Assembly (NCBI GenBank): GCA_050950145.1
Contig: JBMNHB010000001.1
Coordinates: forward strand, 53,136 to 117,135
Length of the DNA stretch: 64,000 bases
From: Candidatus Dojkabacteria bacterium
Lineage (GTDB): Bacteria > Patescibacteriota > Dojkabacteria > SC72
Direction: 5' to 3'
In this document: in pieces, positions 2,535 to 51,821 of the stretch
Layout: the number at the start of each line of letters is the position of its first letter
How positions within the stretch are numbered: the first letter of the stretch is position 1
The notes under the pieces: model-generated
Told to the model about the DNA's origin: nothing
The model's input: only the letters and a program-made list of their open reading frames with translations
Database searches by the model: none
Program-made: the position numbers and the translations under genes

Positions 2535-2957
2535 ATGCCAACAATTAACCAATTAGTAAGAAAACCTAGAAAATCTGCAAAGAGGAAGACCAAGCATACT
2601 CACTTAGCTAGAGACTTCAATCCTTTGAAGAACAGATACAAGAAGGCTGCAAACCCTTTTAAGAGGGGTGTATGTCTTCAGGTAAGAACAATGACACCTA
2701 AGAAACCTAACTCAGCACTTAGAAAGGTAGCAAGAGTTAGAATGTCTAATGGGGAAGAGGTAACCGCATATATTCCAGGTGAAGGACATAATTTACAGGA
2801 ACACTCAGTTGTCTTACTTAAAGCAGGTAAGAAGAGAGACTTGCCAGGTGTTAAATACATTGTTATTAGAGGGAAGTATGATGCTGCAGGAGTTAAAGGA
2901 AGAAAGAAAGCAAGATCTAAGTATGGGGTTAAGAAAGAAGAAGTAGCAGAAAAATAG
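2535..2957 (+). CDS. rpsL: 30S ribosomal protein S12
   Basis: [13 protein letters not shown]-terminus and conserved S12 core; 140 aa. Confidence 0.95.
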
Positions 2958-2979
2958 TTTTTAATTAATAGATAAATAT

Positions 2980-3450
2980 ATGAGAGGTAAAAGAGCAAAA
3001 AGAAGAACAATAAAAGTTGATAGAAAGTATTCTGATCCTGTCATTGCTCGCTTTATCTGTAAAGTTATGCAGGATGGAAAGAAAGCTCTTGCAGAAGAGC
3101 TAGTATACAATGCAATAGAGAATGGTGCAGAGCTAGTTAAGGAAAAGGATGTTATAGCTTTTGTAAGTAAAGCTATTGATAATGTTAGACCAGCACTTGA
3201 GATTAAAGCAAGAAGAGTAGGTGGTGCTAACTATCAAGTTCCTATGCCAGTATCACCTAGAAGGCAAGAAACATTAGCAGTTAGATGGATTGTAGAGGCA
3301 TCTAGAAAAAAAAGTGGTAAATCATTTGATGAGATTCTTAAGGATGTGTTAGTAGATTCATACAAAGGTGAAGGAGATGCTGTAAGAAAGAAGGAAGAGG
3401 TAGAGAAAATGGCAGAAGCAAACAAAGCATTTGCACATTTTAGGTGGTAA
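2980..3450 (+). CDS. rpsG: 30S ribosomal protein S7
   Basis: S7-like sequence, 156 aa, directly downstream of rpsL. Confidence 0.93.
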   Translation: MRGKRAKRRTIKVDRKYSDPVIARFICKVMQDGKKALAEELVYNAIENGAELVKEKDVIAFVSKAIDNVRPALEIKARRVGGANYQVPMPVSPRRQETLAVRWIVEASRKKSGKSFDEILKDVLVDSYKGEGDAVRKKEEVEKMAEANKAFAHFRW

Positions 3451-3475
3451 TATTCTTACAATATTAGTATTTGAG

Positions 3476-3504
3476 AAGAGAGGTGTAATAGCCTCTCTTT
3501 TTTA
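3476..3504 (+). terminator. Rho-independent terminator after rpsG
   Basis: Stem aagagagg / cctctctt with 8-nt loop, then a T6 run. Confidence 0.6.
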
Positions 3505-3513
3505 ATAAACAAA

Positions 3514-3542
3514 TTGACAATTGACTATAATACGACTATAAT
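3514..3542 (+). promoter_or_regulatory. Consensus sigma70-type promoter (TTGACA-N17-TATAAT) directly upstream of fic
   Basis: ttgaca at 3514-3519 and tataat at 3537-3542 with 17-nt spacer; ATG at 3549, so a very short or absent leader. Confidence 0.55.
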
Positions 3543-3548
3543 ACAACT

Positions 3549-4589
3549 ATGTTTAATCCCAAATACACCCTAAGTAATTTTCTCCTAATCAATATTCGTA
3601 AGGTTGGAGAGTTAATAGGGGAACTAAATAGTAAACAATTTACTAAAACAATACTTTTTAACTTAGAGAAAAAAGCTAGAATACTCTCTTCTTTTACATC
3701 TACAAAGATAGAAGGGAATCCATTATCATTAACAGATGTAAAAACAATTCTTAAAACAGAACCTAGAAACATTAAAGATACTGAGAAAGAGATAATTAAC
3801 TATAATGATGTAGTAGTAATGTTAAATGAAGAAATTAAGAAGAATAATGATTTAATTCTTTCAGATAAACTAATATGTAAAATACAAGGTATTGTTACAA
3901 AAGGTTTACTTCCTTCTTCATATAGAGGGAAATATAGAAAAGAACCAGTATTTGTAAATAACCCATTAACAGGAGAAACGGTGTACTGGCCACCTGATGC
4001 AAAAGATGTAAATAATTTGATGAAAGAGTTGATAGATTTTGTTAATAAGTCAGAAGGAAAGATAGATCCTTTGATTCTAGCAGGTATTTTTCACAAACAA
4101 TCAGTTGTAATTCATCCATTCATGGATGGTAATGGAAGAACAACAAGATTAGTAACTAAGACATTACTTGCAAAATTAGGTATAAATACATTTCCTCTAT
4201 TTAGTTTTGAAAATTACTATAACAAAGATGTGTCTAAGTATTTTCAAAAAGTAGGAGTAATGGGAGATTACTATGATATTGCTAATGATTTAGACTTTAC
4301 AGAGTGGTTAGAATATTTTGTTGAAGGGATTTTAGATGAATTAAATAGAGTTAAAAAAGATTTACCTAGATACAAAGAGAGATTGGAACCTCACGAGAAG
4401 AAGATAGTAGAGTATCTTAAAGATAATGGTTCAATATCATCTAGTGAGTATTATGAAATTAGTAAAAGAGCTAGATCTACAAGAATTAAAGATTTTAGAA
4501 TATTAAGAGATAAGGGTGTTATCAAACCTGTTGGACAAGGAAAAGCAACATACTATATATTAGATAATGACTATTGGTTTTTAGAGTAA
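3549..4589 (+). CDS. Fic/Doc (Fido) family protein, class II, with C-terminal winged-helix domain
   Basis: Canonical HPFMDGNGRTTR active-site motif; N-terminal STKIEG matches the inhibitory (S/T)xxxE(G/N) helix; C-terminal wHTH-like segment. Confidence 0.85.
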   Translation: MFNPKYTLSNFLLINIRKVGELIGELNSKQFTKTILFNLEKKARILSSFTSTKIEGNPLSLTDVKTILKTEPRNIKDTEKEIINYNDVVVMLNEEIKKNNDLILSDKLICKIQGIVTKGLLPSSYRGKYRKEPVFVNNPLTGETVYWPPDAKDVNNLMKELIDFVNKSEGKIDPLILAGIFHKQSVVIHPFMDGNGRTTRLVTKTLLAKLGINTFPLFSFENYYNKDVSKYFQKVGVMGDYYDIANDLDFTEWLEYFVEGILDELNRVKKDLPRYKERLEPHEKKIVEYLKDNGSISSSEYYEISKRARSTRIKDFRILRDKGVIKPVGQGKATYYILDNDYWFLE

Positions 4590-4590
4590 T

Positions 4591-5529
4591 TTACTTTGTA
4601 CTCTCTATTCTCTCCCATCCACTCTTGGGCATATCTTTTCTAAGAATACTTCTTTCCCAAAATATCTTTATCCATGTAATTAATCTAGTAGGGAAGAGTA
4701 ATAATGACCATATGAACTCTTTGAAACTCTTGGCATATCTAAGCACAAATCCTGTATATTGTAACTCTATCCAAAAACTTCTAGATTGTTTATCCTTTTT
4801 AAAAATAGCCATATGCTTTAGTTGTGTAAAACCACCTAAAGATCTCACTTTTTGTTTCATATAGTCCTTAAAGTTAGTAGGATACTTAACACAGCACATA
4901 GCTTTTGGTGCATATGCTATCTCCAAATGTTTGTTTCTAATGTAATATGACATATATGCATCATCTGAAAGTACATTACTTGGAAGTTTAATATTTATAT
5001 TTCTAACAGCCATAATATATCCACTCATAGGGAAAAATGTCTTCCTACTTATGTAGTAATCCTTCCCCTTAACCTTCTCCATACTGTCTGATCTTTTATC
5101 ATGTGCAGAATCAGATAGTAGGTGTCCCCAGTATCCAAACATATTATCTCTTTTGTCTTGAGAAACAGGTCTACCACTTACTCCTCCAACTTTTTCATTC
5201 TCAAATGGTTCTAAAAGTTTCTTAACTGCATCTTTTTTGAAATATGTATCTCCATCTGTAAGTATAAATATATCTCCTTTTGCTTTTTTAAAAGCCATTC
5301 TTAGAGCATATGGCTTACCTTTCCTTGGGTCTTTTAGTTGGATATACTTCTTACCAAGTCTGTATTTTTTTGCTTCTTTTGCTCCTGCATTTAAAGTCTC
5401 TTCATCAGGAGATACTTGAATGACCTCAAAATTAGTTGGAATACCAGAATATTTTCTATTTACAATAGACGAAACACATCTACCGATGGTTTTAGGCTCT
5501 TTGAATGATGCAATTATTACACTTATCAT
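4591..5529 (-). CDS. Family 2 glycosyltransferase
   Basis: GT-A fold signatures: N-terminal IIASFKEP and DGD motif (ILTDGDTYF). Confidence 0.7.
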   Translation of the reverse strand: MISVIIASFKEPKTIGRCVSSIVNRKYSGIPTNFEVIQVSPDEETLNAGAKEAKKYRLGKKYIQLKDPRKGKPYALRMAFKKAKGDIFILTDGDTYFKKDAVKKLLEPFENEKVGGVSGRPVSQDKRDNMFGYWGHLLSDSAHDKRSDSMEKVKGKDYYISRKTFFPMSGYIMAVRNINIKLPSNVLSDDAYMSYYIRNKHLEIAYAPKAMCCVKYPTNFKDYMKQKVRSLGGFTQLKHMAIFKKDKQSRSFWIELQYTGFVLRYAKSFKEFIWSLLLFPTRLITWIKIFWERSILRKDMPKSGWERIESTK

Positions 5530-5549
5530 ATTATATATTTAATATATAA

Positions 5550-6224
5550 TTATTCAGTAACCTTTTCTTCTTCAGGGGTAGCTTCAGTTGGTGTTTCTCC
5601 TTCTTCTGGCGTTTCTCCTTCAACTTCTCCTTCCTCTCCTTCTTCTGGTTCAACAGTCTCAATAATTTCTTCTTGCATTTCTGTAATTGTGACTACAGTA
5701 GCATTTTTTAACTCATCGTTAATAAGGGAGATTGTTTCAGGAATATTTAGGTCTTTAACAGCAATAGATTGACCTGGATGCTCAAGTTTTGAAATATCAA
5801 CCTCAATGGAAGGAATAAGGTCATTGACTTTACATCTAACTTCAATAGAATCCATAACTTCAACCATAACACCAAGATTGTTCTTAACTGCAGGTGATAT
5901 GCCGACAATTTCAAATGGAATAGAGAATACCATGTCTTTACTCTCATCAATTTCAAAAAATGCAATATGTCTTAAATCTTCAGTTATTGGATTTACATCA
6001 ATCTCTTTAACAACTGCTTTAAAAGTTTTTCCTTCTAACTCTAAATCTAAGATAGTTGTTGATGTTGCTTCTCTTGCAATCTGTTTTGCAGTTGCAAGAT
6101 CTAACATGATATTTTTAGATTCTGTTTTTGCATTGTAAACAACTGCTGGGACGAATCCTTCGCTTAATAAAACTTTGTTCTTTTTCCCATTTATATCTCT
6201 TTCGAGTAATTTGATTGTTTCCAT
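5550..6224 (-). CDS. rplY: 50S ribosomal protein L25 / general stress protein Ctc, acidic C-terminal tail
   Basis: L25/Ctc-like core (GKKNKVLLSEGFVPAVVYN...). Start set at METIKLL; the longer track ORF reads into the IS inverted repeat. Confidence 0.8.
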   Translation of the reverse strand: METIKLLERDINGKKNKVLLSEGFVPAVVYNAKTESKNIMLDLATAKQIAREATSTTILDLELEGKTFKAVVKEIDVNPITEDLRHIAFFEIDESKDMVFSIPFEIVGISPAVKNNLGVMVEVMDSIEVRCKVNDLIPSIEVDISKLEHPGQSIAVKDLNIPETISLINDELKNATVVTITEMQEEIIETVEPEEGEEGEVEGETPEEGETPTEATPEEEKVTE

Positions 6225-6269
6225 AATGTGTAGGAGTATAGCAGAAAAACTAACCTCTAGCAACACCCA

Positions 6270-7253
6270 CTTAATCAGTAATGACATATTCCCCACCCTT
6301 AGTTAAACTAATGGTATAGGACAAATGAAAATAAGCACAATAAGAAAGAGGTTCTTAGAAAATAATAGGAATGTCTCTAAAACAGCAAGAGAACTAAACA
6401 TTGATAGAAAGACTGTCAGAAAGTGGATCAAAAAGAAAAGAGGATGGCATAACAAACTAGAATATGTAAACAAGAAAAGATTACCTACTACCCCAAAGAA
6501 TATTAAAAACAAAATATCTCTAGATACAAGGAGATTAATTGTACATATTAGAGAAGAATATGGATATGACCAAGATAAAATATCATTCATTCTAAAAAAT
6601 CAATACAATATACATGTGTCAGGAAAATCAATTTACAATATAATTAAGAAAAGAAAACCTTACTTAATTTCAAAAAGGAAGAAGTATGGAAGACCTCATT
6701 TCCAAGATAGTAGCCATATGAGACCTAGTAATACAAATAATGTGGGATATGTACAAATGGATGTAAAATATGTCACTCCACAGCTCTCTGGACTACCTTT
6801 TACATGCTACGAATATGGAATAATTGATATTTACTCTAGATATAAGTATGCATGGATATTACCTACATTGGATACAGAGAGTGCAATTGTAGCCCTTAGA
6901 GGAGCAAGACAATCTCTACCTTTTAAAATTAAGTTTGTACAGACAGATAATGGATGGGAGTTCTCAAAAAGGTTTAGTGAGGAATGTAAAAGATTAGGGA
7001 TTAAACATTACTACATTCACAAATCAACACCAAATGAGAATGCGGTAATTGAGAGGAGCTTTAGAACAGATCAAGAGGAGTTCTTCTTTAGATTAAAGAG
7101 TAGACCTAAAGATATTAATGAGCTAAATATCTTGTTTCAAAAGTTCCTACATGTATACAATACTTTTAGACCACATATTGGGATAGGGCTCAAAACTCCG
7201 CTACAGATGATACAATCTGAGCCGTAGGTGGGGAATATGTATTACTGATTAAG
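6270..7253 (+). mobile_element. Insertion sequence, IS481/IS3-like single-ORF DDE element with 6-bp target site duplication
   Basis: 28-bp terminal inverted repeats (cttaatcagtaat[g]acatattccccacc, 1 indel) at 6270-6298 and 7225-7253; direct repeat caccca at 6264-6269 and 7254-7259. Confidence 0.8.
6325..7227 (+). CDS. DDE transposase (rve integrase-core, IS481-like)
   Basis: N-terminal HTH; core ...QMDVKYV...FVQTDNGWEF...PNENAVIER; stop codon lies inside the right IR. Confidence 0.85.
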   Translation: MKISTIRKRFLENNRNVSKTARELNIDRKTVRKWIKKKRGWHNKLEYVNKKRLPTTPKNIKNKISLDTRRLIVHIREEYGYDQDKISFILKNQYNIHVSGKSIYNIIKKRKPYLISKRKKYGRPHFQDSSHMRPSNTNNVGYVQMDVKYVTPQLSGLPFTCYEYGIIDIYSRYKYAWILPTLDTESAIVALRGARQSLPFKIKFVQTDNGWEFSKRFSEECKRLGIKHYYIHKSTPNENAVIERSFRTDQEEFFFRLKSRPKDINELNILFQKFLHVYNTFRPHIGIGLKTPLQMIQSEP

Positions 7254-7405
7254 CACCCAGAGTTGTTTCTTTTAAGCTCTTAAGAATTTGTAAATTGTTA
7301 AGAAGATTAACCTTCTATATCTGGTCCTTTTGCTATCATTGCTGTTTGACCATTAATTTATGTAATTAATATATATTAGATGAAATCGATATGTAAGTAG
7401 ATATA

Positions 7406-7939: not shown

Positions 7940-7996
7940 ATATGAATGAAATTTATTTTAAATAGCACTTGACACTTCTGTCTGCTTACAATATAC

Positions 7997-8023
7997 TTAG
8001 CAAATAACTTAATCATCTGCTAA
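7997..8023 (+). promoter_or_regulatory. Reduced CIRCE-like HrcA operator (TTAGCA-N15-TGCTAA) abutting the hrcA start
   Basis: ttagca at 7997-8002, 15-nt spacer, tgctaa at 8018-8023; upstream TTGACA-N17-TATACT promoter-like element. Confidence 0.55.
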
Positions 8024-8024
8024 C

Positions 8025-8750
8025 ATGGATTTAACAGAGAGACAAAGAGAAATACTTACTGCAATTATAGAAGAGTTCATGCAGGAGGCAGATGAGGTAG
8101 GTTCATTATCGCTCGTTGAAAAATATGACTTAGGTGTTAGTTCTGCAACGATTAGGAATGAAATGGTTAAACTAATGGATTTGGGACTTTTGGAAAAAAG
8201 TCATATATCTTCCGGAAGATTACCAACAGATCAGGCATTAAGATTGTATGTGACAAAAATTCTTGAAAGAAGGCAGTTAAGTCCATTAGTTAGTGTTGAA
8301 ATTAGACAGGGAATATATAGAGATAGGTTTGATAAGGATGTTGTAATTAAATCAGTTTTAGAGATCTTATCCAAAGAAACAGAGAGTCTAGTTTTTTTGG
8401 TGTTAGATGATCAGATTAGATATTTTGGAATTACACAACTCTTTAAATATTCCGAATTTAAGAATGTTGAGAAGTTAAAAACAATATTTAGTATTTTAGA
8501 AGATGATATATATTTAAGGGATATGGTAAAGAAATATTCAAGTTCAGGAGTTTCATTATTAATTGGTGGAGAATCTGGGATAAAGGAGTTAACTGATTGT
8601 GCAATTGCATTTACAAAGATTCCATTTTGGGATGAAAATCAGGCATATGTCGGGATTTTAGGATCTAAGAGAATGGATTACTCTATTGTAATACCAGCAT
8701 TAAATGAAGTGAGGAATGCGTTAAGTGCTTCAATGTCAGGATGGAGATAA
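8025..8750 (+). CDS. hrcA: Heat-inducible transcription repressor HrcA (short form)
   Basis: N-terminal wHTH (LTERQREILTAIIEEF...) and HrcA-like body; precedes grpE-dnaK. Confidence 0.85.
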   Translation: MDLTERQREILTAIIEEFMQEADEVGSLSLVEKYDLGVSSATIRNEMVKLMDLGLLEKSHISSGRLPTDQALRLYVTKILERRQLSPLVSVEIRQGIYRDRFDKDVVIKSVLEILSKETESLVFLVLDDQIRYFGITQLFKYSEFKNVEKLKTIFSILEDDIYLRDMVKKYSSSGVSLLIGGESGIKELTDCAIAFTKIPFWDENQAYVGILGSKRMDYSIVIPALNEVRNALSASMSGWR

Positions 8751-8766
8751 ATTCAGATAGTTAGTT

Positions 8767-9291
8767 ATGAAAAAAGATAAAAATACAAAACAGGATACAA
8801 ATGTGCAAGATTTTCAGAAGAAGATACAGGAATTGGCACTTACGATAGATAAGGTAGAGGATGAGAAGTTGGTTGTTGAAAATCAATTAAAGAAGGCTTT
8901 AGCAGATTATCATAATTTACAGTCAAGTATGGAGAAGAGGCAGGCTCTAAGTATCTTTAATATGAAGAAAAGATTCTGTGAAGAGTTCTTACCAAGTATG
9001 GATGCCATGGTTTTAAGTATTGAGAGTGAAAAGACATTACAACTAGATGATAAAGAGAAGGCATGGTTTGAAGGTGTAGTTGCAATCTTTGAATCTATGA
9101 AGAAATCTTTAGAAGGTATAGGTTTAAAAATATATCTTCCTCAAGTGGGAGATATGTTTGATACATCTATACATGAGGCAATTGCTACATCTGAAGGTGG
9201 CAAAACAGGTGAGATTACTGCAGTAGTTCAACCTGGATACACACTAGATGATACTGTAATTCGTCCTTCCAAAGTATTGGTATCTAAATAA
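8767..9291 (+). CDS. grpE: Nucleotide exchange factor GrpE
   Basis: GrpE coiled-coil plus C-terminal beta domain; sits between hrcA and dnaK. Confidence 0.85.
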   Translation: MKKDKNTKQDTNVQDFQKKIQELALTIDKVEDEKLVVENQLKKALADYHNLQSSMEKRQALSIFNMKKRFCEEFLPSMDAMVLSIESEKTLQLDDKEKAWFEGVVAIFESMKKSLEGIGLKIYLPQVGDMFDTSIHEAIATSEGGKTGEITAVVQPGYTLDDTVIRPSKVLVSK

Positions 9292-9318
9292 TTGAATTAA
9301 ATTTTTACAATAAAATAT

Positions 9319-11229
9319 ATGTCAAAAATAATAGGTATAGACTTAGGAACTACAAACTCTGCCATGTCTTTCATGGAGGGTGGTAAGCCAAATATAATTG
9401 CAAACTCACAGGGAAGTAGACTTACTCCTTCTGTAGTTGCAGAGGATGAAAAAGGTGAGATTCTTGTTGGTACTCCAGCTAAGAATCAAGCAGTTGTTAA
9501 TCCAGAGGGTACTATCTACTCTGTAAAGAGATTGATTGGTAGGAGTTGGGATGATCCTGAAGTTAAGAAAGATGCGAAACTATTACCATTTGAAATGAGG
9601 AAAGCATCTAATGGTGGTGTTGAAGTTAAAATGGGAGATAAATGGTACACACCACAAGAGATCTCTGCAAAAGTCTTAGCAAAGATGAAGAAAGATGCAG
9701 AGGAATTCTTAGGTCAAGATGTTAAAGAAGCTGTAATTACAGTCCCAGCATATTTTGATGACTCTCAAAGACAGGCAACAAAGGATGCAGGTAAGATTGC
9801 AGGTTTGGATGTTAAAAGAATTGTTAATGAGCCAACAGCAGCAGCTTTAGCATATGGATTGGATGATAAAAAGGATCAGAAAGTTGCAGTATTTGACTTA
9901 GGTGGTGGTACATTTGATATCTCTATCCTTGAAATGGGTGATGGAGTTTTTGAAGTTCTTTCAACAAATGGTGATACACACTTAGGTGGTGATGACTTTG
10001 ACCAAGAAATCATTGATTACCTTGCAAAAGAATTTGAGAAGAAAGAAGGTATGGATCTTAGAGAAGACAAGACTGCACTTCAGAGATTGAAAGAGGCTGC
10101 AGAGAAAGCAAAGATTGAACTTTCTACATCAGAAGAAACTGAAGTTAATGTTCCTTACATTACAGCAACAGATAAAGGACCAAAGCATTTGAAAGAAAAA
10201 TTAACTAGATCTGAATTAGAGAAATTAACAAATGATTTAATTGAGAAGACAGTTAAACCATGTGAGAAGGCTCTAAAAGATGCAGGATTAGATAAGAAAG
10301 ATATTGATGAGGTGTTACTTGTAGGTGGTATGACAAGAATGCCAGCTGTTGTTAAGAAGGTAAAAGAAATCTTTGGTAAAGAACCAGATAAAGGTGTAAA
10401 TCCTGATGAGGTTGTAGCACAAGGTGCAGCAATTCAAGCAGGAGTTCTAGGTGGTGATGTAAAAGATATTACACTCTTAGATGTAACACCATTATCTCTT
10501 GGTTTAGAGACATTAGGTGGAGTATTTACCAAATTAATTGAGAGAAATACTACAATTCCTGTTGAGAAGAAACAGATTTTCTCTACAGCTGCTGATAACC
10601 AGCCAGGTGTTGAGATTCATGTTCTTCAGGGAGAGAGAGAGATGGCTGCAGATAACAAGACATTGGGTAGATTCTTACTTGATGGTATCCTACCAGCACC
10701 AAGAGGAGTTCCTCAGATTGAAGTTACATTCTCTATAGATGCTAATGGAATCTTAAATGTTAAAGCTTTAGATCTTGGAACAAAGAAAGAACAGAAGATT
10801 ACAATTACAGCATCTACTGGACTAAAGGAAGAAGAAATTGAAAAGATGGTTGAGGAAGCAGAGAAGAATGCAGAAGAGGATAAAAAGAAGAAAGAGAGAG
10901 CGGAGAAGAGGAATAATGCAGATACATTAGCATTTAATGCAGAGAAAATGATAGATGAGAACAAGGATAAGATTTCTGAAGATGAACAGAAGAGTATTAA
11001 GGAGAAAGCAGAAGAACTAAAAGAGATAATTAAGAAAGAAGATTTTGATTTAGATGAGGTAGAAAAGAAATCTGAAGAATTAGAGAAGGAGATGTTAGAA
11101 GTAGGTAAGAAGGTATATGAGGCAGCTGCAAAAGAATCTGAAGCTAAAGAAGAGAAAAAAGATGATGAGAAACCATCAGAAGAAAAGAAGGATGAAGAAG
11201 CTAAGGAGGGTGAGGTAGTAGAAGAGTAA
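9319..11229 (+). CDS. dnaK: Chaperone DnaK (Hsp70)
   Basis: [18 protein letters not shown] and other Hsp70 signatures; acidic/KE-rich C-terminus. Confidence 0.97.
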
Positions 11230-22541: not shown

Positions 22542-24137
22542 ATGAAAATAGTTTTTAGAAAAGATCTAAATATTGCCACCATTCGTTCTGATTCATTATG
22601 GAACAAGATGGTTGTACATACTCTTTTACAAAACTGTTCTACAAAACAACCATCAATAAATGCATATTTAGGTGCTAGGTATAGTAGGTCTGCTGATTCA
22701 ATAGTAGATATTGCATCAGAGATTATAAATAGTGGTAAAGATGCCTCTGAAAGGTTAGAAAAGATATTTGCTGGATATGGGCATAAGTCTGTAGGGGATA
22801 TGGCAGAGTTATTTGTTTGTATAGAGAATGTTCCAATTATTACAGGTATGAAGTTCTTCTATATGAATCCTGTTATTGCAGGTCAAGAGCGATCTACTAG
22901 ATATCAAAATTTTTCTGATCCTAATTTTGTTAAAATTCCTGCAGAGGTATGTAGTAATCAATCAGTAAGAAAAGAATATGAAAAGATAATATTTAAGCAG
23001 CTTGCAGATTACAAGAGACTTCTTAAGATTACGCGAGAAGAATTATCTAAGATTTTCAAAATTAACGAAGAGAGTCCTCAGGAAGTCTCTGCTTTAAAGG
23101 CAAGGAGTTTTGATGTTGCTAGATATCTTCTTCCTGTGGGATTGAGTACAAGTGATGCTATGGTGATGTCTGCTCGTTGTTGGTCTGAATTTATTGGTTT
23201 TCTCGCAGGGAGTGATAGTGTTGTTGATAATGAAGTAGCTGATTTAGTGTTGAATTTGTTGGGAGATTCTAATATTGATACTAAGGGATATATTCGGGAG
23301 GCAGATAATCTAATTCGTCACACAGAGTCAAATAGTAGTAGAGGTAATTCTACAAAAGAAGTTTTGGAGTATATTGGTAAGACATTAAGTAGGGAACAGG
23401 TTGATTCTATACCTGAGAGTGAAAGTGAGTCTGTTTCTGTAAGTTACTCCCCTGATTTTACAGAATCTTTATTTTCTCATTATGAAGCTTTATTAAATCC
23501 CTTAGGTTCTGTTGATGAGTATGAATTTGATGAAGAAGATCAAGAGAATATTAGTGAGATACTTTTTGAGAATCATAATCATCATAATACAATTGGGAAT
23601 ATTGGACAGAGTGGTGCAGTTAAAATAGAGGGTTTTGCTACATTAGGAACGTTAAAGGATTTGAATAGGCATAGGAGTTTGGAGAGGTTTATACCTTTAT
23701 TACATGATGAGGTAGATATGGATCAGGAGTTGGATAGAAGAAATGATGAATGTTTTTATCTATGTAATTATCTTGATATTCCAAGCTTAAAGAATTTAAA
23801 GTCTGAGTACAAGAAAGCCTTGTCAGAAACATATGAGATGATAAAGGAGTGGAGAAGTAATGCTAAGGAATATCTTTCTGAGGAAGTATGTGATGAGTTC
23901 ACTAAATATCTACTACCACATGCTCATACAACTAAGTATATGATGTATGGTTCTTTTGATGATTTACAATATGTTGTTAATTTAAGAATAAGGAATGGGG
24001 GACATATAGCATATAGAGTGGTGGTACATGAGTGGTTAAAGAAGTTAGGAATACAAGACCCTATATGGAGAGGTTTACAGAAGAGGCTCAAAGCACCAAA
24101 AGTTGATGATAAATTTGAATTTGTAGATAGGTCATAA
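22542..24137 (+). CDS. thyX: Flavin-dependent thymidylate synthase ThyX, tandem-duplicated (two ThyX-like repeats, 531 aa)
   Basis: Repeat 1 has ERSTRY (like ELSGRY) and ARYLLPVGL...SARCW, but no RHR. Repeat 2 has LNRHRS and TKYLLPHAH...VVNLRIRNGGH (like NLRADSHAQ). Located between glyA and dcd. Confidence 0.6.
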   Translation: MKIVFRKDLNIATIRSDSLWNKMVVHTLLQNCSTKQPSINAYLGARYSRSADSIVDIASEIINSGKDASERLEKIFAGYGHKSVGDMAELFVCIENVPIITGMKFFYMNPVIAGQERSTRYQNFSDPNFVKIPAEVCSNQSVRKEYEKIIFKQLADYKRLLKITREELSKIFKINEESPQEVSALKARSFDVARYLLPVGLSTSDAMVMSARCWSEFIGFLAGSDSVVDNEVADLVLNLLGDSNIDTKGYIREADNLIRHTESNSSRGNSTKEVLEYIGKTLSREQVDSIPESESESVSVSYSPDFTESLFSHYEALLNPLGSVDEYEFDEEDQENISEILFENHNHHNTIGNIGQSGAVKIEGFATLGTLKDLNRHRSLERFIPLLHDEVDMDQELDRRNDECFYLCNYLDIPSLKNLKSEYKKALSETYEMIKEWRSNAKEYLSEEVCDEFTKYLLPHAHTTKYMMYGSFDDLQYVVNLRIRNGGHIAYRVVVHEWLKKLGIQDPIWRGLQKRLKAPKVDDKFEFVDRS

Positions 24138-27354: not shown

Positions 27355-27621
27355 TTATACACCTTTAAAAGGATTTTTTAGTTGTAATGCAGATATAGCT
27401 CTTGATATTTGTGGGTTTTTTACTGATTTTGCTATATTAGATCTGTAATTACTTTTCTCTTCTGCTTTAAGTAATTGTTCTAAATCCGAACTTTTGGCTT
27501 CTTCTGTTAATGATTTTGTATCAACAGCTTGTGTTACAAGATATAGTTCTTCTTGTATTTTTTCAGGTTCTTTTTTAGTTGTTTTTTTATTAAAGAAACT
27601 AAACATTTTTATCTTCTTCAT
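27355..27621 (-). CDS. Small hypothetical protein, last gene of the VirB4 operon
   Basis: 88-aa ORF overlapping the virB4 3' end by 23 nt. Confidence 0.25.
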   Translation of the reverse strand: MKKIKMFSFFNKKTTKKEPEKIQEELYLVTQAVDTKSLTEEAKSSDLEQLLKAEEKSNYRSNIAKSVKNPQISRAISALQLKNPFKGV

Positions 27622-30010
27622 TAGGGTAACTTTCTGTATAGCCCTGTGGTGTTAAATGTTTCTTACCTTTTTGTATATCTTTCCTAGAACTCACAACTTG
27701 TCCTGTTAGGGTCTTTTGACTCAACTCATCTATGAATGTCTTTTGACTTTTATATTTATCTGGATTTATCACCTTTTCTTGTTCAACTAACCTTTTTTCT
27801 AACTCTTCTTGATATTTTATTCTTTCATCCAAGAGCATCTCTCTCTGTTTTTCTTTAGCCTCTATAGCTTCCATGATAATTTCGCTTTCTCTTGTACTAC
27901 TATCTCGTATAGGTTGTTGTACTGCTGGAGGATCATATATTTGAGCTAATTCTTGAACTGTTCTTGTGTCTGTTATACCTTCTTTTTCTTTGAGTCTTTC
28001 TAAATCTTTAGGGTCAGATGTAATAATTTCATGCTCAGCAACACTTGATAATACTTGAATACCAACATGGTTTTGTCCTGCAAAAAATAATCCTTGTCCT
28101 TTATCACAGTTTAATAGGTAATTTCTTTCTCCATCTGATAAGTTGAAAACTTTTTGTAGTAGTTCAACAGCAGAAGGGCTTTGTTTCATTAGCATTTGTA
28201 TTGAAGAGTTAGAGATAATTGCTTTTCCCATTTCATTTCCTAAGAAATCTGCAACATCTTGTGTAATTGTTGATAACCCTAGATAATATTTTCTAGCTCT
28301 TTTAGCAATAGTGTACATAAATTTAGCTGAATCCTCCGATTGCATCATATACCAAGCTTCATCAACAATTAATAATCTTCTTTTTCTATCTTTTCTAATT
28401 CTTGTCCAGATAAAGTCCAACATTAGGTACATAGCTAGTGGTTTTAGTTCATCCTGTAAATCTCTGATACTGAATACTGTGAATGGATTATTAATCTCAA
28501 AGTTACTTGCTTCATTAAATACTCCTGCACCACTTCCTATAATGTATTTTTCAAGCCTTCTTGCTAAACCATGTGCTTCTGTTTCAGCCATACCTTTAAG
28601 GACTTTGTATAAATCTTCAAGTAAAGGAGGTGTTTTGGTCTGAGTTTTAACATCAAATGTTATACCTTTTTCTTTGTATGTCAGAGATAAAGCTCTATCT
28701 AATATAGAATCTTCAATATTTGTTATTCCTTCAAATAGTACTTTGAAAAACCCATGAAGTGATAATAGTTTCATTCTTAACTCATCATCTCCTTCTTCTG
28801 TTACTCCTGAAAGTTCAAAAGGATTCATTTTGTGTCCCTTATCTTGTGAGAAAGAGATATAAGCTCCATTAACAGCTTTTGCTAAATTCTCATACTCTCT
28901 TTCTGGGTCAATTATGATAATCTCGGTTCCTAGCATTAAACTTCTAATAGCTTCAAGTTTAACGAAGTAACTTTTTCCTGCACCAGATTTTGCAAATATT
29001 ACTGCATTTGCATTTTCTAATTCAAACCTATCAAATACAATCAAACTCTTGTTGTGCATATTTAATCCATACATAATCCCATGATCCATTGTTAATTCCG
29101 AAGTAACAAATGGAAAAGTAGTAGCTAATGAAGTAGTATCCATATTTCTAGTTATGAAGAGGTTGTCTATTCCTAATGGTTGTGTACTTATGAATGCTTG
29201 TTCTTGTTGTAAGGTTGCAGGTTTAGCTGTTACATTCATTGCTGCAAATGTAGATATGACATTTCTTGATATCTTTTCCAATTCTTCTTTGTTGTTAGCA
29301 TAGAGGGTTACATACATGGAGAAATGGAAGAATTTCTCTGTTCCTTCTGCAATAGAGTCTTGTAACATTTGTGCGTCTGAGAGAGCAACTTTAAGTGATG
29401 GATCTATGACTTTTCTATCCTCCATCTGAGTGTAGAGTGTAGCTTCCATCTCACCTATCTTCTTTTTTAATTTTTCTAGAATGGTTTTAGAATCTACTGG
29501 ATAGTAGAATGTACTAATTCTTAATGAGTGCTCAAAGTTGATAATAGGAGATAACCAGTTAGGTCCTACGAATCTGGGATACCCACTTACGAATAGTGTT
29601 CTAAAGTAATATCCTCCCATCTGCAAATGAGTGAAATCAATTTCCATATCAATAGGGGCGAGTAAGTCCTGCATTGACATCTTTGTATCAACACCAATAC
29701 TACTATCAATACTTTGTACTTCTTCTTTAGGTACTTCTTGTACCTTATCTTCTTCTTTCTTTTCCTTACTTTTTTTGTTTTTTCCAGTGATTATGTCTAA
29801 TAGCTGAAATATAGGGTTAACCTTTTTCTTCTTCTCTTCATTTGTGTCTACAAACTCCTCTATTGGAACAAATGGTTTATCCATCTTATCACTAGGTTCT
29901 ACCTTTATCTGTTCTTTAAAGGTAGTATACTTCTCCTGTGCTGTTTGTAGCTTTTTTTGTCTTTCCATCATCATATTGCTAGTTTTACTTGTAATATTGT
30001 TGTTTTCCAT
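27599..30010 (-). CDS. virB4: Type IV secretion/conjugation ATPase, VirB4/TrbE/CagE family (Gram-positive TcpF/PrgJ-like)
   Basis: YFRTLFVSGYPRFV...WL pattern; Walker A AKSGAGKSY; NPF; Walker B LLIVDEAWYMM; RKYYLGLSTITQDVADF. K/E-rich ~110 aa N-terminal linker and ~130 aa coiled-coil C-terminal extension. Confidence 0.85.
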   Translation of the reverse strand: MENNNITSKTSNMMMERQKKLQTAQEKYTTFKEQIKVEPSDKMDKPFVPIEEFVDTNEEKKKKVNPIFQLLDIITGKNKKSKEKKEEDKVQEVPKEEVQSIDSSIGVDTKMSMQDLLAPIDMEIDFTHLQMGGYYFRTLFVSGYPRFVGPNWLSPIINFEHSLRISTFYYPVDSKTILEKLKKKIGEMEATLYTQMEDRKVIDPSLKVALSDAQMLQDSIAEGTEKFFHFSMYVTLYANNKEELEKISRNVISTFAAMNVTAKPATLQQEQAFISTQPLGIDNLFITRNMDTTSLATTFPFVTSELTMDHGIMYGLNMHNKSLIVFDRFELENANAVIFAKSGAGKSYFVKLEAIRSLMLGTEIIIIDPEREYENLAKAVNGAYISFSQDKGHKMNPFELSGVTEEGDDELRMKLLSLHGFFKVLFEGITNIEDSILDRALSLTYKEKGITFDVKTQTKTPPLLEDLYKVLKGMAETEAHGLARRLEKYIIGSGAGVFNEASNFEINNPFTVFSIRDLQDELKPLAMYLMLDFIWTRIRKDRKRRLLIVDEAWYMMQSEDSAKFMYTIAKRARKYYLGLSTITQDVADFLGNEMGKAIISNSSIQMLMKQSPSAVELLQKVFNLSDGERNYLLNCDKGQGLFFAGQNHVGIQVLSSVAEHEIITSDPKDLERLKEKEGITDTRTVQELAQIYDPPAVQQPIRDSSTRESEIIMEAIEAKEKQREMLLDERIKYQEELEKRLVEQEKVINPDKYKSQKTFIDELSQKTLTGQVVSSRKDIQKGKKHLTPQGYTESYPNEEDKNV

Positions 30011-30645
30011 TAATCTTCTTCAGGGTTATATGATGTATACAGTTCTGTTATTAACTCTTTTGTAGTTAATTGATGTCCGAAAAGTCCCATCCTTCCTAGT
30101 TGTTTTATTATATGATCCCTTTTAGGGTATAGGAATATTTTAGCTTTTTCTATTAATTGGTCCATTTTTATATTCCTATTTTGTTCTTCCTCTTCTTTGC
30201 TTTTCTTCTTTTTCAATATGGATGTTTCCGGTATTATAGATCCAGTATGATAGGGAACTATGATAAAAAAACTTTTATCTAGAACATCATTCTGTACGAT
30301 TAAATTTTTCACAAATGTTATGTATATGTTTAATTGTTTTTTTAATCCCTCACTCATAGCTTGTTGTTCTTGTGATTGTAGATAGGTAATGTAGTTGGTA
30401 ATATCTATCCTTTTTGTTCTAATCATTATCTGGATACGAAAATTCAAGGAATTCAGTAATCCTGCAAAAGCAAGTATCTTATTATCTTGTTCATACTCTG
30501 CAAGTAAATCAAAATTAATAGCAGATGTTTGTATTACCATCGCAACACTTCCATTTTTATTTATCACCAAGTCATCACGAATATCTCGTACCGCTAGATG
30601 ATCTTGTGTTGATGCTGTTGCTCTTGCTCTTGCATTTCTATCCAT
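30010..30645 (-). CDS. VirB4 N-terminal domain encoded as a separate, translationally coupled ORF
   Basis: IRDDLVINKNGSVAMVIQTSAINFDLLAEYEQDNKILAFAGLLNSL...RIQI matches the conserved N-terminal domain of Gram-positive VirB4 ATPases; stop/start overlap TAATG with virB4. Confidence 0.55.
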   Translation of the reverse strand: MDRNARARATASTQDHLAVRDIRDDLVINKNGSVAMVIQTSAINFDLLAEYEQDNKILAFAGLLNSLNFRIQIMIRTKRIDITNYITYLQSQEQQAMSEGLKKQLNIYITFVKNLIVQNDVLDKSFFIIVPYHTGSIIPETSILKKKKSKEEEEQNRNIKMDQLIEKAKIFLYPKRDHIIKQLGRMGLFGHQLTTKELITELYTSYNPEED

Positions 30646-30646
30646 T

Positions 30647-31477
30647 TTAAAGTGTAGTTATCTTAATAGGTAAGTTCTTTTCATTTCCACTTAATAATAT
30701 ATCTACCTTAGGGAACATGTATTGATTATTATCAAATTCAATAGAATATTTTCCTGGTTTCCATTTCTGATTTGTTAAAAAGTATCCATTACTCCCCGTT
30801 TTATTAGCATACAAAAGATTCCCATTTTCATCTTTTAATAGAGTTACAATATTAGGAATTGGTTTGAAGTCTTTTGTACTAATCCAAATATTAATATTTC
30901 CAGGTAGATTGTCAAAACCTTTGGCATTAAATTGATATTGAGAAATATTCTCTTCATTTATTAAAATATATTCAGGATTTACACTCTTAGGAGCAGAACT
31001 CTCAAGACTTTCTAATTCCTCATCTATTTTCTTTTGTACTTCGGATATGGGTTGTTCTGTCTTTTTATCTGTTAATTGAACTCCAATAATTTTCTTCTTT
31101 TTTTCTTTAGTATCCTTTGCTATTAATTTACCATCTTCAGATGGTTTTAAATGTGGCTTTACTCTGTTTTTTTCATCCTCTTTACTAATCCATGCTCTCT
31201 GTGTAGGACTAGTTATTGCCCTTATATAGTTCTGTATAAATTTGTCAGCAGGTTGGTCATTTATTGGTACAAGAGCTAGGAAGATACCAGCTAAAGATGA
31301 GAGGATGAATACAGGGATACCAATTATAGGTGGAATTGTATTACCAATGGTTAGATAGAGAACTAAGCCACCCAAACCAACACCTAGTGCTAAATATGCA
31401 AATTCTTTGAGAGTGAACTTAGTAAAAAGTTTAAACTCTACATCTAATACATTTTGAGGTATTGCATGTTGTTTCAT
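30647..31477 (-). CDS. VirB3-like two-TM membrane protein with C-terminal beta-rich extracytoplasmic domain
   Basis: Two adjacent N-terminal TM helices (LALGVGLGGLVLYLTIG / IIGIPVFILSSLAGIFLALVP) immediately upstream of the virB4 ORFs. Confidence 0.4.
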   Translation of the reverse strand: MKQHAIPQNVLDVEFKLFTKFTLKEFAYLALGVGLGGLVLYLTIGNTIPPIIGIPVFILSSLAGIFLALVPINDQPADKFIQNYIRAITSPTQRAWISKEDEKNRVKPHLKPSEDGKLIAKDTKEKKKKIIGVQLTDKKTEQPISEVQKKIDEELESLESSAPKSVNPEYILINEENISQYQFNAKGFDNLPGNINIWISTKDFKPIPNIVTLLKDENGNLLYANKTGSNGYFLTNQKWKPGKYSIEFDNNQYMFPKVDILLSGNEKNLPIKITTL

Positions 31478-33579: not shown

Positions 33580-35406
33580 CTACGTTTTCAATATAGCCAA
33601 GAAAGCATCCTGTGGAATATGTACCTGTCCAATCTGTTTTAATCTTTTCTTACCTTTCTTCTGCTTTTCTAAAAGTTTCTTTTTTCTAGAATAGTCACCA
33701 CCATACAACTTAGCAGTAACATCTTTTCTAAAAGCTTTTACATCTTCTCGTGCAATAATAGTAGAACCAATAGCTGCTTGAAGGGGAATAGAGAACTGTT
33801 GTCTAGGTATAACTGTCTTCATAACCTCTAGGAGTTTGACAGCCTTTGCTCTAGCATCATCTCTAACTTCAAGAAAATCTAATACAGAAACTTCCTCATG
33901 GTTTACTAGTATAGAGACCTTTACAATATCGGCAGGGAAATAATCAATAAATTCATATTCCATAGATGCATATCCACTAGAAATATTTTTCATCTGGTCA
34001 AAGAAATTAGAAATGAGAGAAACAAGAGGCATATCATATTCTAGAACAATATATTGGTCTTTAAGCTGAATATCACTACTGTTTGCATGTAGATACTTTG
34101 TATTAACATACTGGCCTCTCTTGAATTGGCACAAACTCATTAAATCACCTAAATATTTCTCTGGTGTCATAATCTCAGCTCTAACCCAAGGTTCCCTTAT
34201 CTCTTTAATAGTAGCAGAATCTGGAAGTTCATGAGGTGCTTGTATTACTAATTCTTCACCATCTATCTTTGTAACTTGATATTCAACAGTAGGAGCGGTA
34301 ACAATTAAATCAATGTCATATTCTCTCTCTAATCTCTCTTGGACAATCTCCATATGTAGTAATCCTAAGAATCCACATCTAAATCCAGAACCGAGTAAAT
34401 TTGATCTTTGGTCTGTGAATACTAAAGAAGCATCATTTAACGAAAGTTTAATCAATGCTGTTTTAAGGTCTTCGTAATCCTCTGTATCTGTTGGGAAGAA
34501 TGTAGCAAACATATTTGGTTTAGGTATTTGGTATCCATGGAGTGGAGTTGTATCTTCTTTGTCTGAGATAGTATCTCCAACTGTAAAGAAACTAATATCT
34601 TTCATACCTGTTGCAATATATCCAACTTCTCCAGCCTCTAATTTATCTATCTCTTCTAAATCTGGATTAAAAATACCAATCTCTGTTGGTTTGAAAGATT
34701 GTTGTCTTTGAATCATGTGTAGAGTCTTTGCTTTACCTGGTTCGTATTTGTATGACCCATCAAATATTCTAATTGCAATCACAACACCTCTGTGTTCATC
34801 ATAGAAGGAATCAAAAACCAATGCTTTAAGTGGTGCATTCACATCACCTGTTGGAGCAGGGGACTTCTCAATTATCCTGTCTAACAACTCCTCTACACCC
34901 TGTCCGGTCTTCCCAGATACTTTAACAATCTCTTCTTTCTTAAAACCTAGTAATGCTTCGATCTCTTTTTCTCTTTCCTCAATATTTACATCAGGTAAAT
35001 CAATTTTGTTTAATACAGGAATTAAGGTTAGTCCTAAATCTAAAGCCTTTCTAGTATTTGATATTGTTTGTGCTTGTATTCCTTGACTAGCATCTACAAG
35101 GAGTAGGGCAGACTCACAAGCAGCAAGTGATCTAGATACTTCGTAAGAGAAATCTACATGTCCTGGAGTGTCTATGAGATTTAATTCATACCCCTTCCAT
35201 GTCATTTTACATGCTTGTAGTTTAATTGTAATACCTTTCTCCTGTTCTAAATCTAACTTATCTAAAACTCTGTTACTCTTCTTTCTAGCAATATGACTGT
35301 TTTGTGTTGCTTCTAACATTCTATCTGCTAGAGTAGACTTCCCATGATCTATATGAGCTATGATTGAGAAGTTCCTAATTTTTTCTAATGGTCTTGAGTT
35401 AGACAT
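33580..35406 (-). CDS. lepA: Elongation factor 4 (LepA)
   Basis: IRNFSIIAHIDHGKSTLADR G-domain and LepA-specific C-terminal domain. Confidence 0.95.
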   Translation of the reverse strand: MSNSRPLEKIRNFSIIAHIDHGKSTLADRMLEATQNSHIARKKSNRVLDKLDLEQEKGITIKLQACKMTWKGYELNLIDTPGHVDFSYEVSRSLAACESALLLVDASQGIQAQTISNTRKALDLGLTLIPVLNKIDLPDVNIEEREKEIEALLGFKKEEIVKVSGKTGQGVEELLDRIIEKSPAPTGDVNAPLKALVFDSFYDEHRGVVIAIRIFDGSYKYEPGKAKTLHMIQRQQSFKPTEIGIFNPDLEEIDKLEAGEVGYIATGMKDISFFTVGDTISDKEDTTPLHGYQIPKPNMFATFFPTDTEDYEDLKTALIKLSLNDASLVFTDQRSNLLGSGFRCGFLGLLHMEIVQERLEREYDIDLIVTAPTVEYQVTKIDGEELVIQAPHELPDSATIKEIREPWVRAEIMTPEKYLGDLMSLCQFKRGQYVNTKYLHANSSDIQLKDQYIVLEYDMPLVSLISNFFDQMKNISSGYASMEYEFIDYFPADIVKVSILVNHEEVSVLDFLEVRDDARAKAVKLLEVMKTVIPRQQFSIPLQAAIGSTIIAREDVKAFRKDVTAKLYGGDYSRKKKLLEKQKKGKKRLKQIGQVHIPQDAFLAILKT

Positions 35407-50735: not shown

Positions 50736-51821
50736 ATGGAAAAAAGAGATTATTATGAAATTTTAGGAGTAGACAAGAAAGCTTCTTCTGCAGAAATTAA
50801 AAAGGCCTACAGAAAGTTGGTGAAAAAATATCATCCGGATGTAAACAAGGAATCAGGTGCTGAAGAGAAATTCAAAGAGATACAGGAGGCATACGAGACT
50901 CTTTCAGATGAATCTAAGAGATCAGCATATGACCAATACGGACATGCTGGTACAGCTGGTTTTAATCCTGGAGCAGGTGGTGGATATACTGATTTTGGAG
51001 GAGCTCCTTTTGATATGGGAGATATTTTCAGTACCTTTTTTGGTGGAGATAGTGGTTTTGGTTTTGATTTTGGTGGACAGAGAGGTCCTAGACAGGATAT
51101 CGGTTCAGATATTAAGTATAGGATTAGATTAAGTTTCTTGGAGGCGATGAAAGGTGGTGAGTACAAAATTAAGGTTAAGAGAGAAGAAAGATGTGGTGAA
51201 TGTAATGGTACTGGAAGTAAATTAGGTAAGAAGAAAGAATGTCCAGTATGTAAAGGGAGTGGTCAACAGCAACAGGTGAGAAATACAATATTTGGTCAGA
51301 TGGCAATGATGAGTACATGTCAGAATTGTGGTGGTTCCGGAGAAGTGGTAGATGATCCTTGTGATAAGTGTAAGGGAAGTGGTATTGAGAATGTAGAAGA
51401 GAGTTTTAATATTAAGGTTCCAGCTGGTGCATATGATGGTATGGTCTTGAGGTTTAGAGGTGGTGGTAATGTTGGAAGAAATGGTGGTTCAGTTGGTGAT
51501 TTGTATATTGAGATTGAAGTAGAAGCTTCAAATGAATTTGAAAGAAGAGGTAATGATATTTACTCTGAGATGTCTATATCCGTATATACTGCTGTTTTAG
51601 GAGATACTGTTCCTGTTAAAACAATTTTTGAAGATGTTAAATTAAAGATTCCAAAAGGTACACAACCAGGTACGATATTTAGATTAAGGGGTAAGGGTGC
51701 ACATGTTCTTAATTCAGAAAAAGATAGAGGCGATCATTATGTAAGGATTAATATTGAGATTCCTACAAGGTTAAACAAGGAAGAAAAAGAGCTTTGGGAA
51801 GAACTAAAGAGTGGTGAATAA
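50736..51821 (+). CDS. dnaJ: Chaperone DnaJ
   Basis: J-domain ([11 protein letters not shown]), G/F region, four CxxCxGxG zinc-finger repeats. Confidence 0.95.

Follow-up and report, generated by a model that had tools for sequence, protein, structure and literature searches.

A class II Fic–winged helix gene beside rpsG in a Dojkabacteria genome carries three direct repeats merged with its promoter and is probably a self-repressed cassette

The 64,000-nucleotide stretch of Candidatus Dojkabacteria contig JBMNHB010000001.1 analyzed here (positions 53,136–117,135; hereafter the window, G+C content 32.8%) carries a fic gene directly downstream of the ribosomal protein genes rpsL and rpsG, and this gene and the DNA that precedes it are the subject of this work. 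The window opens with the 3′ part of rpoC (2–2509), upstream of rpsL (S12; 2535–2957, + strand; Pfam S12, 7.6e-34) and of rpsG (S7; 2980–3450, + strand; Pfam S7, 8.6e-50, and synteny in relatives), which is the last gene of a truncated str unit. The rpsL–rpsG pair ends in an intrinsic-terminator-like hairpin followed by a T-run (3473–3505, + strand), with a 12-bp stem and a folding energy of −19.5 kcal/mol (z = −4.4), a value that none of 200 shuffled sequences equals. Beyond the terminator lie a sigma-70-type promoter that matches the consensus at 12 of 12 positions, TTGACA (3514–3519)–N17–TATAAT (3537–3542), on the + strand; three tandem 11-bp direct repeats that form a putative operator (3521–3553, + strand; Tandem Repeats Finder and homolog comparison); and the fic open reading frame (ORF) of 346 residues (3549–4589, + strand; Pfam Fic, 2e-17), which encodes a class II Fic protein with a C-terminal winged helix-turn-helix (wHTH). 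A convergent family 2 glycosyltransferase gene (GT2; 4591–5529, − strand; Pfam GT2 families) follows. An earlier note on this DNA had described the same succession of terminator, perfect promoter, Fic ORF, and convergent GT2 after rpsL–rpsG, and every element was found in its place.

The Fic protein contains the active-site motif of the Fic (Fido) AMP-transferases, HPFMDGNGRTTR, here H189-PFMDGNGRTT-R200 (4113–4148, + strand), which matches HxFx(D/E)GNGRxxR. An inhibitory motif, S51-T-K-I-E55-G56 (3699–3716, + strand), sits at the end of a model helix comprising residues 33–54 and matches [S/T]xxxE[G/N]. Class II Fic proteins carry an inhibitory motif of this form on the same chain, ahead of the active site (PMC9755527), and it is this placement that assigns the protein to class II. 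Across 59 aligned homologs there is no variation at S51, E55, G56, H189, P190, F191, D193, N195, G196, R197, and R200, and almost none at G194; the enzyme is predicted to have everything needed for AMP transfer and to be self-inhibited by Glu55. At the N terminus, homologs keep M1, F2, P4, and Y6 with little or no variation, and the start codon is thereby fixed at 3549; the database gene calls of 369 and 391 residues for two relatives are upstream over-extensions to wrong starts.

The AlphaFold model of the protein (mean pLDDT, the predicted local distance difference test score, 86.5) folds first into an N-terminal helix that leads into the inhibitory helix, followed by the Fic core and a C-terminal winged helix of three helices (residues 281–293, 298–305, and 309–321) and two strands (325–328 and 335–338). 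In the gene, this wHTH (residues 281–340) occupies 4389–4568 on the + strand, with a weak ArsR-type HTH match at residues 285–341, and its predicted recognition helix, approximately residues 307–321, occupies 4467–4511 on the same strand. A Foldseek search returned whole-chain matches (~350 columns, E = 1e-13 to 1e-15) to Fic-wHTH crystal structures, namely those of Dde_2494 (4rgl), a Mycobacterium marinum Fic protein (7cb8), SoFic (3zcn and 3eqx), CbFic2 (8cil), and CccR (7xux). Motifs, model, and structural matches together thus bear out the earlier description of a class II Fic protein with a canonical motif, an N-terminal inhibitory motif, and a C-terminal wHTH. By sequence, CccR is the best match in the PDB (E = 9.5e-16; identity ~21–22%, full length by Foldseek), and the PADLOC SoFic model PDLC03963 matches residues 44–336 at 2.8e-44, covering model positions 57–349 of 361. 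An exact-sequence database look-up gave no identical record.

The same note had called the gene toxin-like, a label that is loose, as the protein carries its own inhibitory helix and has no antitoxin partner. There is no adjacent, co-oriented small antitoxin gene: the rpsG terminator lies upstream, and the fic stop codon is 1 nt from the convergent gene in the window and in the homologous loci L001, L002, and L003. An antitoxin resembling the AS1 of EcSofic was looked for and rejected, there being no room for it and no conserved small ORF. A 96-residue ORF at 4574–4864 was rejected as an antitoxin as well, as it lies antisense to GT2, a gene that has been replaced in L001, and so cannot be conserved there.

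The promoter of fic is the only 12-of-12 match both in the first 20 kb and on the two strands of the full 64 kb (0.036 expected), and it is invariant in the window, L001, L002, and L003. The TATAAT hexamer is followed by 6 nt and the ATG at 3549, which places the predicted +1 at A3549, the A of the start codon itself; there is no Shine-Dalgarno sequence, and the 6-nt distance implies a leaderless fic mRNA. A very short or absent leader, as the earlier note had it, is therefore what we predict, but it is not unusual in this DNA. An exact TATAAT stands 5–8 nt before the first ATG in 8 of 52 window genes, with 0.09 expected (P about 1e-13), examples being those at 2522–2537 (rpsL), 31477 (−), 31744 (+), 33527 (−), 35406 (−), 46277 (−), and 61781 (−), and most genes in the window are without a Shine-Dalgarno sequence. 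At rpsL, the arrangement TATAAT–N7–ATG falls at the very end of rpoC and is kept in nine clade loci; in Fic homologs of other genomes, 6–9 nt separate the −10 element from the ATG. The leaderless layout thus looks like the norm in this genome rather than a peculiarity of fic. A lineage that makes such heavy use of predicted leaderless transcripts matters for gene calling, as the two Fic calls with wrong upstream starts illustrate. As for the strength of the promoter, which had been singled out as unusual, the perfect −35 element is exceptional, but the −10 element is explained by the repeat unit, since ACGACTATAAT contains TATAAT. The second-best sigma-70 match in the first 20 kb, TTGACA–N17–TATACT (11 of 12; 7969–7997), lies upstream of hrcA and, unlike that of fic, would leave a leader of ~27 nt.

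The three repeats, R1 TTGACTATAAT (3521–3531), R2 ACGACTATAAT (3532–3542), and R3 ACAACTATGTT (3543–3553), span the promoter spacer, the −10 element, the +1 position, and the start codon, such that the −10 hexamer is the 3′ part of R2 and the start codon lies within R3. Tandem Repeats Finder reports a period of 11 with 2.5 copies and 94% matches at 3523–3550. With a triple repeat defined as three copies that agree at 6 or more of the 11 positions, 19 of 23 loci with a Fic protein of at least 45% identity qualify, always with a period of 11, compared with 2.6% of 309 control regions upstream of other genes in these loci (Mann-Whitney p = 3e-15); shuffled sequences reach at least 7 identical positions in 4 of 3850 trials. 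Two of the eight outliers among the control regions proved to be further Fic-wHTH genes with triple repeats of their own and of different sequence. The promoter with its repeats travels with the gene across scattered homologs.

The core of the repeat varies by lineage while the three-copy architecture is kept: CGACTA in the group of the window, CGTCTA and CGGCTA in others, and, in relatives at 30–32% identity, TGCGCGA(TT) in three copies upstream of a separate TATAAT. That the unit has repeatedly changed in sequence while its three phased copies were kept is difficult to account for unless a protein binds them. Further out, in Firmicute plasmid homologs at 26–29% identity, triple repeats are absent; L251 has an inverted repeat and L252 has two direct copies, and hence operator layout varies within the wider family. 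At L096, two Fic-wHTH paralogs lie side by side (5001–6023 and 6202–7266), with triple repeats of CGTCTA (period 11) and AATCTTATA (period 10), respectively, and L140 has a second Fic gene (2914–3936) with ACTTGACAA three times; these paralogs suggest that orthogonal operator specificities may coexist within one genome.

Within the window, a search for further operator copies that might define a regulon returned four matches with at most one mismatch, two of which are the fic promoter, against 3.3 expected by chance; the lack of repeat motifs beyond chance elsewhere in the window fits autoregulation rather than a regulon. An operator common to fic and rpsL was also considered, as the rpsL promoter of the window, TATAATACGACCT, resembles the fic repeat. 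It was ruled out, since relatives read GCACT, ACACC, AGACC, or CGACC after TATAATAC and only the −10 element and its spacing are kept.

The repeat core covaries with the predicted recognition helix of the Fic protein. Loci with CGACTA repeats encode R-A-(R/K)-x-T-R-[I/V/R], those with CGTCTA encode R-A-K-x-T-R-[N/A/S], those with CGGCTA encode R-S-L-A-S-R-K, and those with TGCGCGA encode (K/Q/R)-R-(T/S)-A-Q. In a blind scan of all 346 alignment columns, three never share a residue between CGACTA-class and CGTCTA-class loci, and residue 313 in the predicted recognition helix (I313 in the window; codon 4485–4487) is the only column of the 346 that separates all three core classes. Three loci, L092, L093, and L100, have CGACTA repeats and a bulky residue at position 313 (R, V, or R), yet they group by overall sequence with the CGTCTA set, to which they are 62% identical in the Fic part (63% within the group) and 58% identical in the wHTH (59% within the group). 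I313 is accordingly put forward as a candidate base-specifying residue, and the Fic protein's own wHTH is most likely what reads the repeats, a reading drawn from sequence comparison. That the wHTH might serve as an autoregulator had been raised in the earlier note, and with the repeats and their covariation it has become the best-supported part of it.

A protein search returned 3971 relatives of the window Fic protein. The best 120 of these 3971, inspected for identity and taxonomy, are all at least 54% identical and belong mostly to the candidate phyla radiation (CPR), including Dojkabacteria, Parcubacteria, Daviesbacteria, Peregrinibacteria, Saganbacteria, and others. Homologs at 45–64% identity sit in unrelated gene contexts. 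In L084 (3887–10696), the gene is found in an island with two serine recombinases, an integrase, and a methyltransferase; in L087, a complete Dojkabacteria genome, it lies between dnaJ and nusA–infB, a stretch that in the window (50736–54807) is without fic; and in L089 it lies among hypothetical genes. Further neighbors are efp (L090), a TOTE conflict-system protein, ruvB, a family 4 glycosyltransferase (GT4), a second Fic-wHTH gene, an AbiEii toxin, and a recombinase. The conflict-gene neighbors are a TOTE AEP-helicase-PLD protein at L091 (2849–5821) and the AbiEii toxin at L097 (1–561). The more than 17 contexts of Fic homologs share no conserved partner gene. An enrichment of translation genes among the neighbors was considered and rejected, as the contexts are diverse, and so was carriage by phages, as IMG/VR holds only one partial match of at least 45% identity and the rest are at or below 37%. 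By these comparisons the fic cassette appears to be a mobile, singleton gene.

The history of the insertion beside rpsG can be read from closer relatives. The three closest Fic homologs with DNA available, in L001, L002, and L003 (91%, 79%, and 74% identical), all lie directly 3′ of rpsG, and the part of rpoB–rpoC–rpsL–rpsG that each contig covers precedes them. When species-representative genomes were scanned with S7, six species of the same clade emerged, one of them labeled Candidatus Dojkabacteria, at 73–87% S7 identity, below which the next values drop to ~50%. In L004, L007, and L008, rpsG is followed by the convergent GT2 after 47–85 bp, and in L006 by a convergent L25 gene and then hrcA–grpE–dnaK; in L005 other genes follow rpsG, and the contig of L009 stops inside rpsG and gives no view of the downstream site. 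The distance from rpsG to the next gene in L004, L006, L007, and L008 is 47–105 bp, and GT2 or L25 leads on to hrcA–grpE–dnaK where the contig extends that far. Neither fic nor a remnant of it occurs at this site in L004–L008, and fusA is likewise absent there. A tree of RpoC places the window, L001, and L002, which have fic, in one subclade together with L009, with the fic-less L005–L008 outside, a grouping that fits a single gain of fic.

The absence of fusA and tuf after rpsG is the older event. A motif scan of the 1.5 kb that follow rpsG located fusA in 45 of 67 more distant genomes (22 of 67 lack it there). Of the 8 clade relatives whose sequence extends far enough, none has it there, with fic or without, which indicates that the separation of rpsL–rpsG from fusA–tuf is ancestral to the clade and independent of fic, by this gene-order evidence. 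Neither fusA nor tuf was found in the 64-kb window, in which the only translational-GTPase motifs are those of lepA (33580–35406) and infB (53254–54807). The suggestion that fic sits in the place of fusA–tuf therefore does not hold, as fic-less relatives go straight from rpsG to GT2 or L25 and hrcA–grpE–dnaK. Nor is the arrangement simply ordinary for the lineage, the alternative that the earlier note had allowed for: no relative has fusA–tuf at this position, but fic is present in L001–L003 only and absent from L004–L008.

On the present comparison, fic is a later insertion at the rpsG/GT2 junction. Relatives keep the rpsG terminator whether they have fic or not, and in the fic-less L004 the GT2 stop codon comes immediately after it; the insert starts just after the T-run of this terminator, which is common to the empty site of L004, and ends at the fic stop codon, with GT2 at its right edge. 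Compared with the empty sites of L004, L007, and L008, no target-site duplication or edge repeats were found. In L001, GT2 is replaced by two tandem HAD-hydrolase genes (8202–9454), with the breakpoint exactly at the fic stop codon. The window and L001 are more alike in Fic (91% identity) than in RpoC (81%), which hints at exchange of the cassette between relatives. Rather than reflecting a functional link, the position after rpsG looks like a landing site at which a convergent gene junction tolerates insertion.

Several Fic-wHTH proteins have been characterized, and they provide the precedents against which the window gene can be set. In Yersinia pseudotuberculosis, CccR (PDB 7XUX) is a repressor of its own promoter and acts through a pair of inverted 10-bp repeats that lie 26 bp apart near the −35 and −10 elements, and mutation of these repeats raises expression strongly (PMC9755527). 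The window protein resembles CccR in being a class II Fic protein with an N-terminal inhibitory motif (SARIEG in CccR), an HxFxxGNGRxxR active site, and a C-terminal HTH, and in that its repeats (3521–3553, in a putative operator role) overlap the spacer, −10, and +1 of its own core promoter. In contrast to the inverted repeats of CccR, which are read by a symmetric dimer, the window has three direct repeats at 11-bp spacing that run into the start codon; furthermore, CccR is a type VI secretion system effector that targets FtsZ, and no such system is present here. SoFic of Shewanella oneidensis (3EQX/3ZCN), which shares the progression from N-terminal helix to inhibitory helix, Fic domain, and wHTH, must be a dimer to bind the 100 bp that precede its start codon, and it AMPylates switch I of EF-Tu (bioRxiv 10.64898/2026.07.09.737422). 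It differs in its low identity to the window protein (17–18%), in an operator sequence that is not defined, and in a spacer of ~300 bp as opposed to the predicted leaderless start here. EcSofic is likewise a Fic-wHTH protein, a defense toxin whose toxicity depends on AMPylation and dimerization, and it is followed by a gene for a small antitoxin, AS1, of 47 residues (PMC12249575), whereas the fic gene of the window runs directly up against a convergent gene.

CbFic2 of Coxiella burnetii (PDB 8CIL), also of class II and equipped with a wHTH, matches the window protein structurally over its full length, and its activity is changed, in fact stimulated, by DNA, apparently without sequence specificity (PMC10628234). 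It differs in its reported binding of random DNA and in being a secreted effector with histone H3 as its target. Doc/Phd and the class I Fic modules (VbhT/VbhA) belong to the same Fido fold superfamily, and Doc inhibits translation via EF-Tu; Doc, however, has a kinase-type motif and depends on a separate antitoxin, whereas in the window Fic protein the AMPylation motif is complete and the inhibitory helix is part of the same chain. For the reading of direct repeats by a winged helix, the precedent comes from outside the family: winged helices of the PhoB/OmpR type bind 11-bp direct repeats head to tail, with a core of ~7 bp and an A/T-rich spacer of ~4 bp. These are unrelated response regulators and usually activators, and the analogy shows only that such reading is feasible. 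Among the papers searched, none describes direct-repeat operators for Fic proteins or leaderless genes in CPR.

We consider it probable that the locus is a portable, self-repressed Fic-wHTH AMPylase cassette, similar to CccR and SoFic but with another operator layout. The cassette would be a compact, self-contained accessory unit of ~1.08 kb (roughly 3506–4589), consisting of a strong promoter built from repeats and a leaderless ORF, that entered one subclade of a Dojkabacteria-like CPR lineage at the junction of the rpsG terminator and the convergent GT2, when the str operon of the lineage was already unlinked from fusA–tuf. The winged helix of Fic would bind on one face of the DNA, head to tail along the three repeats, and the bound protein would cover the spacer, the −10 element, the transcription start, and the start codon, thereby shutting off an intrinsically very strong promoter in a form of negative autoregulation. 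The enzyme would be held inactive by its own inhibitory helix and, once active, would AMPylate a cellular target, for which EF-Tu is one precedent. A broader reading, on which we are evenly divided, is that there is a large, CPR-centered family of solitary Fic-wHTH AMPylases that travel as minimal promoter–operator–ORF cassettes, in which the winged helix would read three helically phased direct repeats fused to a consensus, leaderless promoter and would have co-evolved with the core CG[A/T/G]CTA, one residue to one base, such that paralogs within a genome would keep orthogonal operators.

A number of observations weigh against the self-repressed cassette. CccR and SoFic act as symmetric dimers, and CccR uses an inverted repeat with a 26-bp spacer, so that three direct repeats would require a different geometry. 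In this lineage the repeat unit contains TATAAT, and part of the repeat can be read as duplicated −10 boxes. The loci share ancestry, so that the repeat statistics overstate their independence, and the covariation comes from 19 sequences and amounts effectively to one specificity switch within a clade. Identity to the characterized Fic-wHTH proteins is only 17–22%, and the NCBIfam SoFic equivalog NF046030 scores 64.5 bits, with a cut-off of 550; by this score, far under the cut-off, the protein shares the SoFic architecture as a distant relative rather than as an ortholog.

Regulation by the repeats is reasonably supported, and the physiological role is not. The gene may serve in abortive-infection defense in the manner of SoFic, may reversibly control a housekeeping target (EF-Tu, for example), or may be a selfish, self-silencing passenger, and the patchy distribution together with the occasional defense neighbors makes us lean towards an accessory or defense role. 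In its specific form, in which the protein would AMPylate a host target upon phage infection and the self-repressed promoter would keep the gene poised, anti-phage abortive infection is compatible with autoregulation, and we regard it as possible although doubtful. The PADLOC SoFic match, the patchy occurrence of fic among close relatives, the position of some homologs beside TOTE, AbiEii, a type I restriction-modification subunit, or serine recombinases, and the precedent of EcSofic as a toxin acting via AMPylation (PMC12249575) are all consistent with it. However, identity to SoFic is only 17–18% and the NCBIfam equivalog cut-off is widely missed, no AS1-like small gene lies downstream in any of the four rpsG-linked loci, where the convergent gene lies 1 nt from the fic stop, and most neighbors of the homologs are housekeeping genes.

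It is unlikely that the repeats are promoter architecture only, for example duplicated −10 boxes or UP-like elements that arose by slippage and are bound by no protein, with the wHTH serving, for example, in the non-specific DNA tethering proposed for CbFic2. The unit with TATAAT does give two tandem −10 boxes here (3526–3531 and 3537–3542), and CbFic2 binds random DNA with high affinity (PMC10628234). What speaks against this explanation is that the units of other lineages (CGGCTAC, TGCGCGATT, and AATCTTATA) are not −10 boxes, although three copies at 10–12 bp are kept; that the TGCGCGA group has its copies upstream of a separate TATAAT; that the core covaries with a single residue of the recognition helix; and that other genes of the same loci are without such repeats.

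Still less likely is a translation-linked regulator, with Fic modifying EF-Tu or another translation factor and its position after rpsL–rpsG being adaptive and coupled to ribosomal gene expression. SoFic AMPylates switch I of EF-Tu and Doc phosphorylates EF-Tu, and three contexts are related to translation: rpsG in the window, nusA–infB in L087, and efp in L090. Yet a strong terminator and a promoter of its own part fic from rpsG, L004–L008 do without fic at the site, and most contexts are unrelated to translation, whose genes are in any case such a large share of small CPR genomes that three neighbors of this kind are unremarkable. That fic displaced fusA–tuf in a recent rearrangement, perhaps by way of a nearby insertion sequence (IS) element, is very improbable: such an element does lie 1.7 kb downstream and fusA does follow rpsG in most of the distant genomes sampled, but fusA follows rpsG neither in the other third of these (22/67) nor in any clade relative, including fic-less ones that keep rpsG–GT2–L25–hrcA, and L003 has the same fic arrangement without an IS element.

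Much of what the self-repressed cassette would involve is already known: class II Fic-wHTH proteins are widespread, self-repression has been published for CccR and suggested for SoFic, and the fusA–tuf gap is an old trait of the lineage. The advance here, modest but real, is a three-copy, 11-bp direct-repeat putative operator that is merged with the core promoter and a predicted leaderless start, in an architecture conserved across many CPR homologs, with one residue that tracks the variable base. If correct, this arrangement would provide a simple DNA-recognition rule for this wHTH family, with a predictable protein–DNA specificity code, and a new operator logic for Fic proteins in which head-to-tail direct repeats replace the palindrome of CccR. 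It would also explain how a potentially toxic enzyme moves between tiny genomes as a self-silencing unit.

Downstream of the cassette, the fic and GT2 stop codons are 1 nt apart (4587–4593) and fic has no terminator of its own; its very strong promoter points into GT2–L25, and antisense interference is possible. The order after GT2 is the gene for ribosomal protein L25/TL5 (5550–6296, − strand; Pfam L25p and TL5_C), the IS element, a 177-residue ORF without a Pfam match, and hrcA–grpE–dnaK. The IS element (6284–7240, + strand; Pfam rve and HTH) encodes an rve transposase at 6325–7227 and is bounded by perfect 14-bp terminal inverted repeats at 6284–6297 and 7227–7240, ACATATTCCCCACC and GGTGGGGAATATGT. 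It has no counterpart at the same site in L003, L006, or L007, and, as L003 has the same fic arrangement without it, it is no part of the fic cassette and was not involved in the fic arrangement. The left end of the element overlaps the GTG-extended start of the L25 ORF; the L003 ortholog of L25 has 221 residues, and the GTG-called N terminus in the window is probably over-extended into the IS end.

Elsewhere in the window, a RuBisCO large-subunit homolog (55057–56481; Pfam 4e-89) lies between infB and pnp in this CPR-type genome. Type IV secretion-like genes at 27599–31477 on the − strand encode a VirB4/TraC-type ATPase of 803 residues and a PrgI-family protein, with two ORFs without a Pfam match between and beside them. 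Finally, the folD–glyA–thyX–dcd cluster includes a ThyX homolog (22542–24137) that is 531 residues long and contains two Thy1 stretches, and thus looks duplicated or fused.

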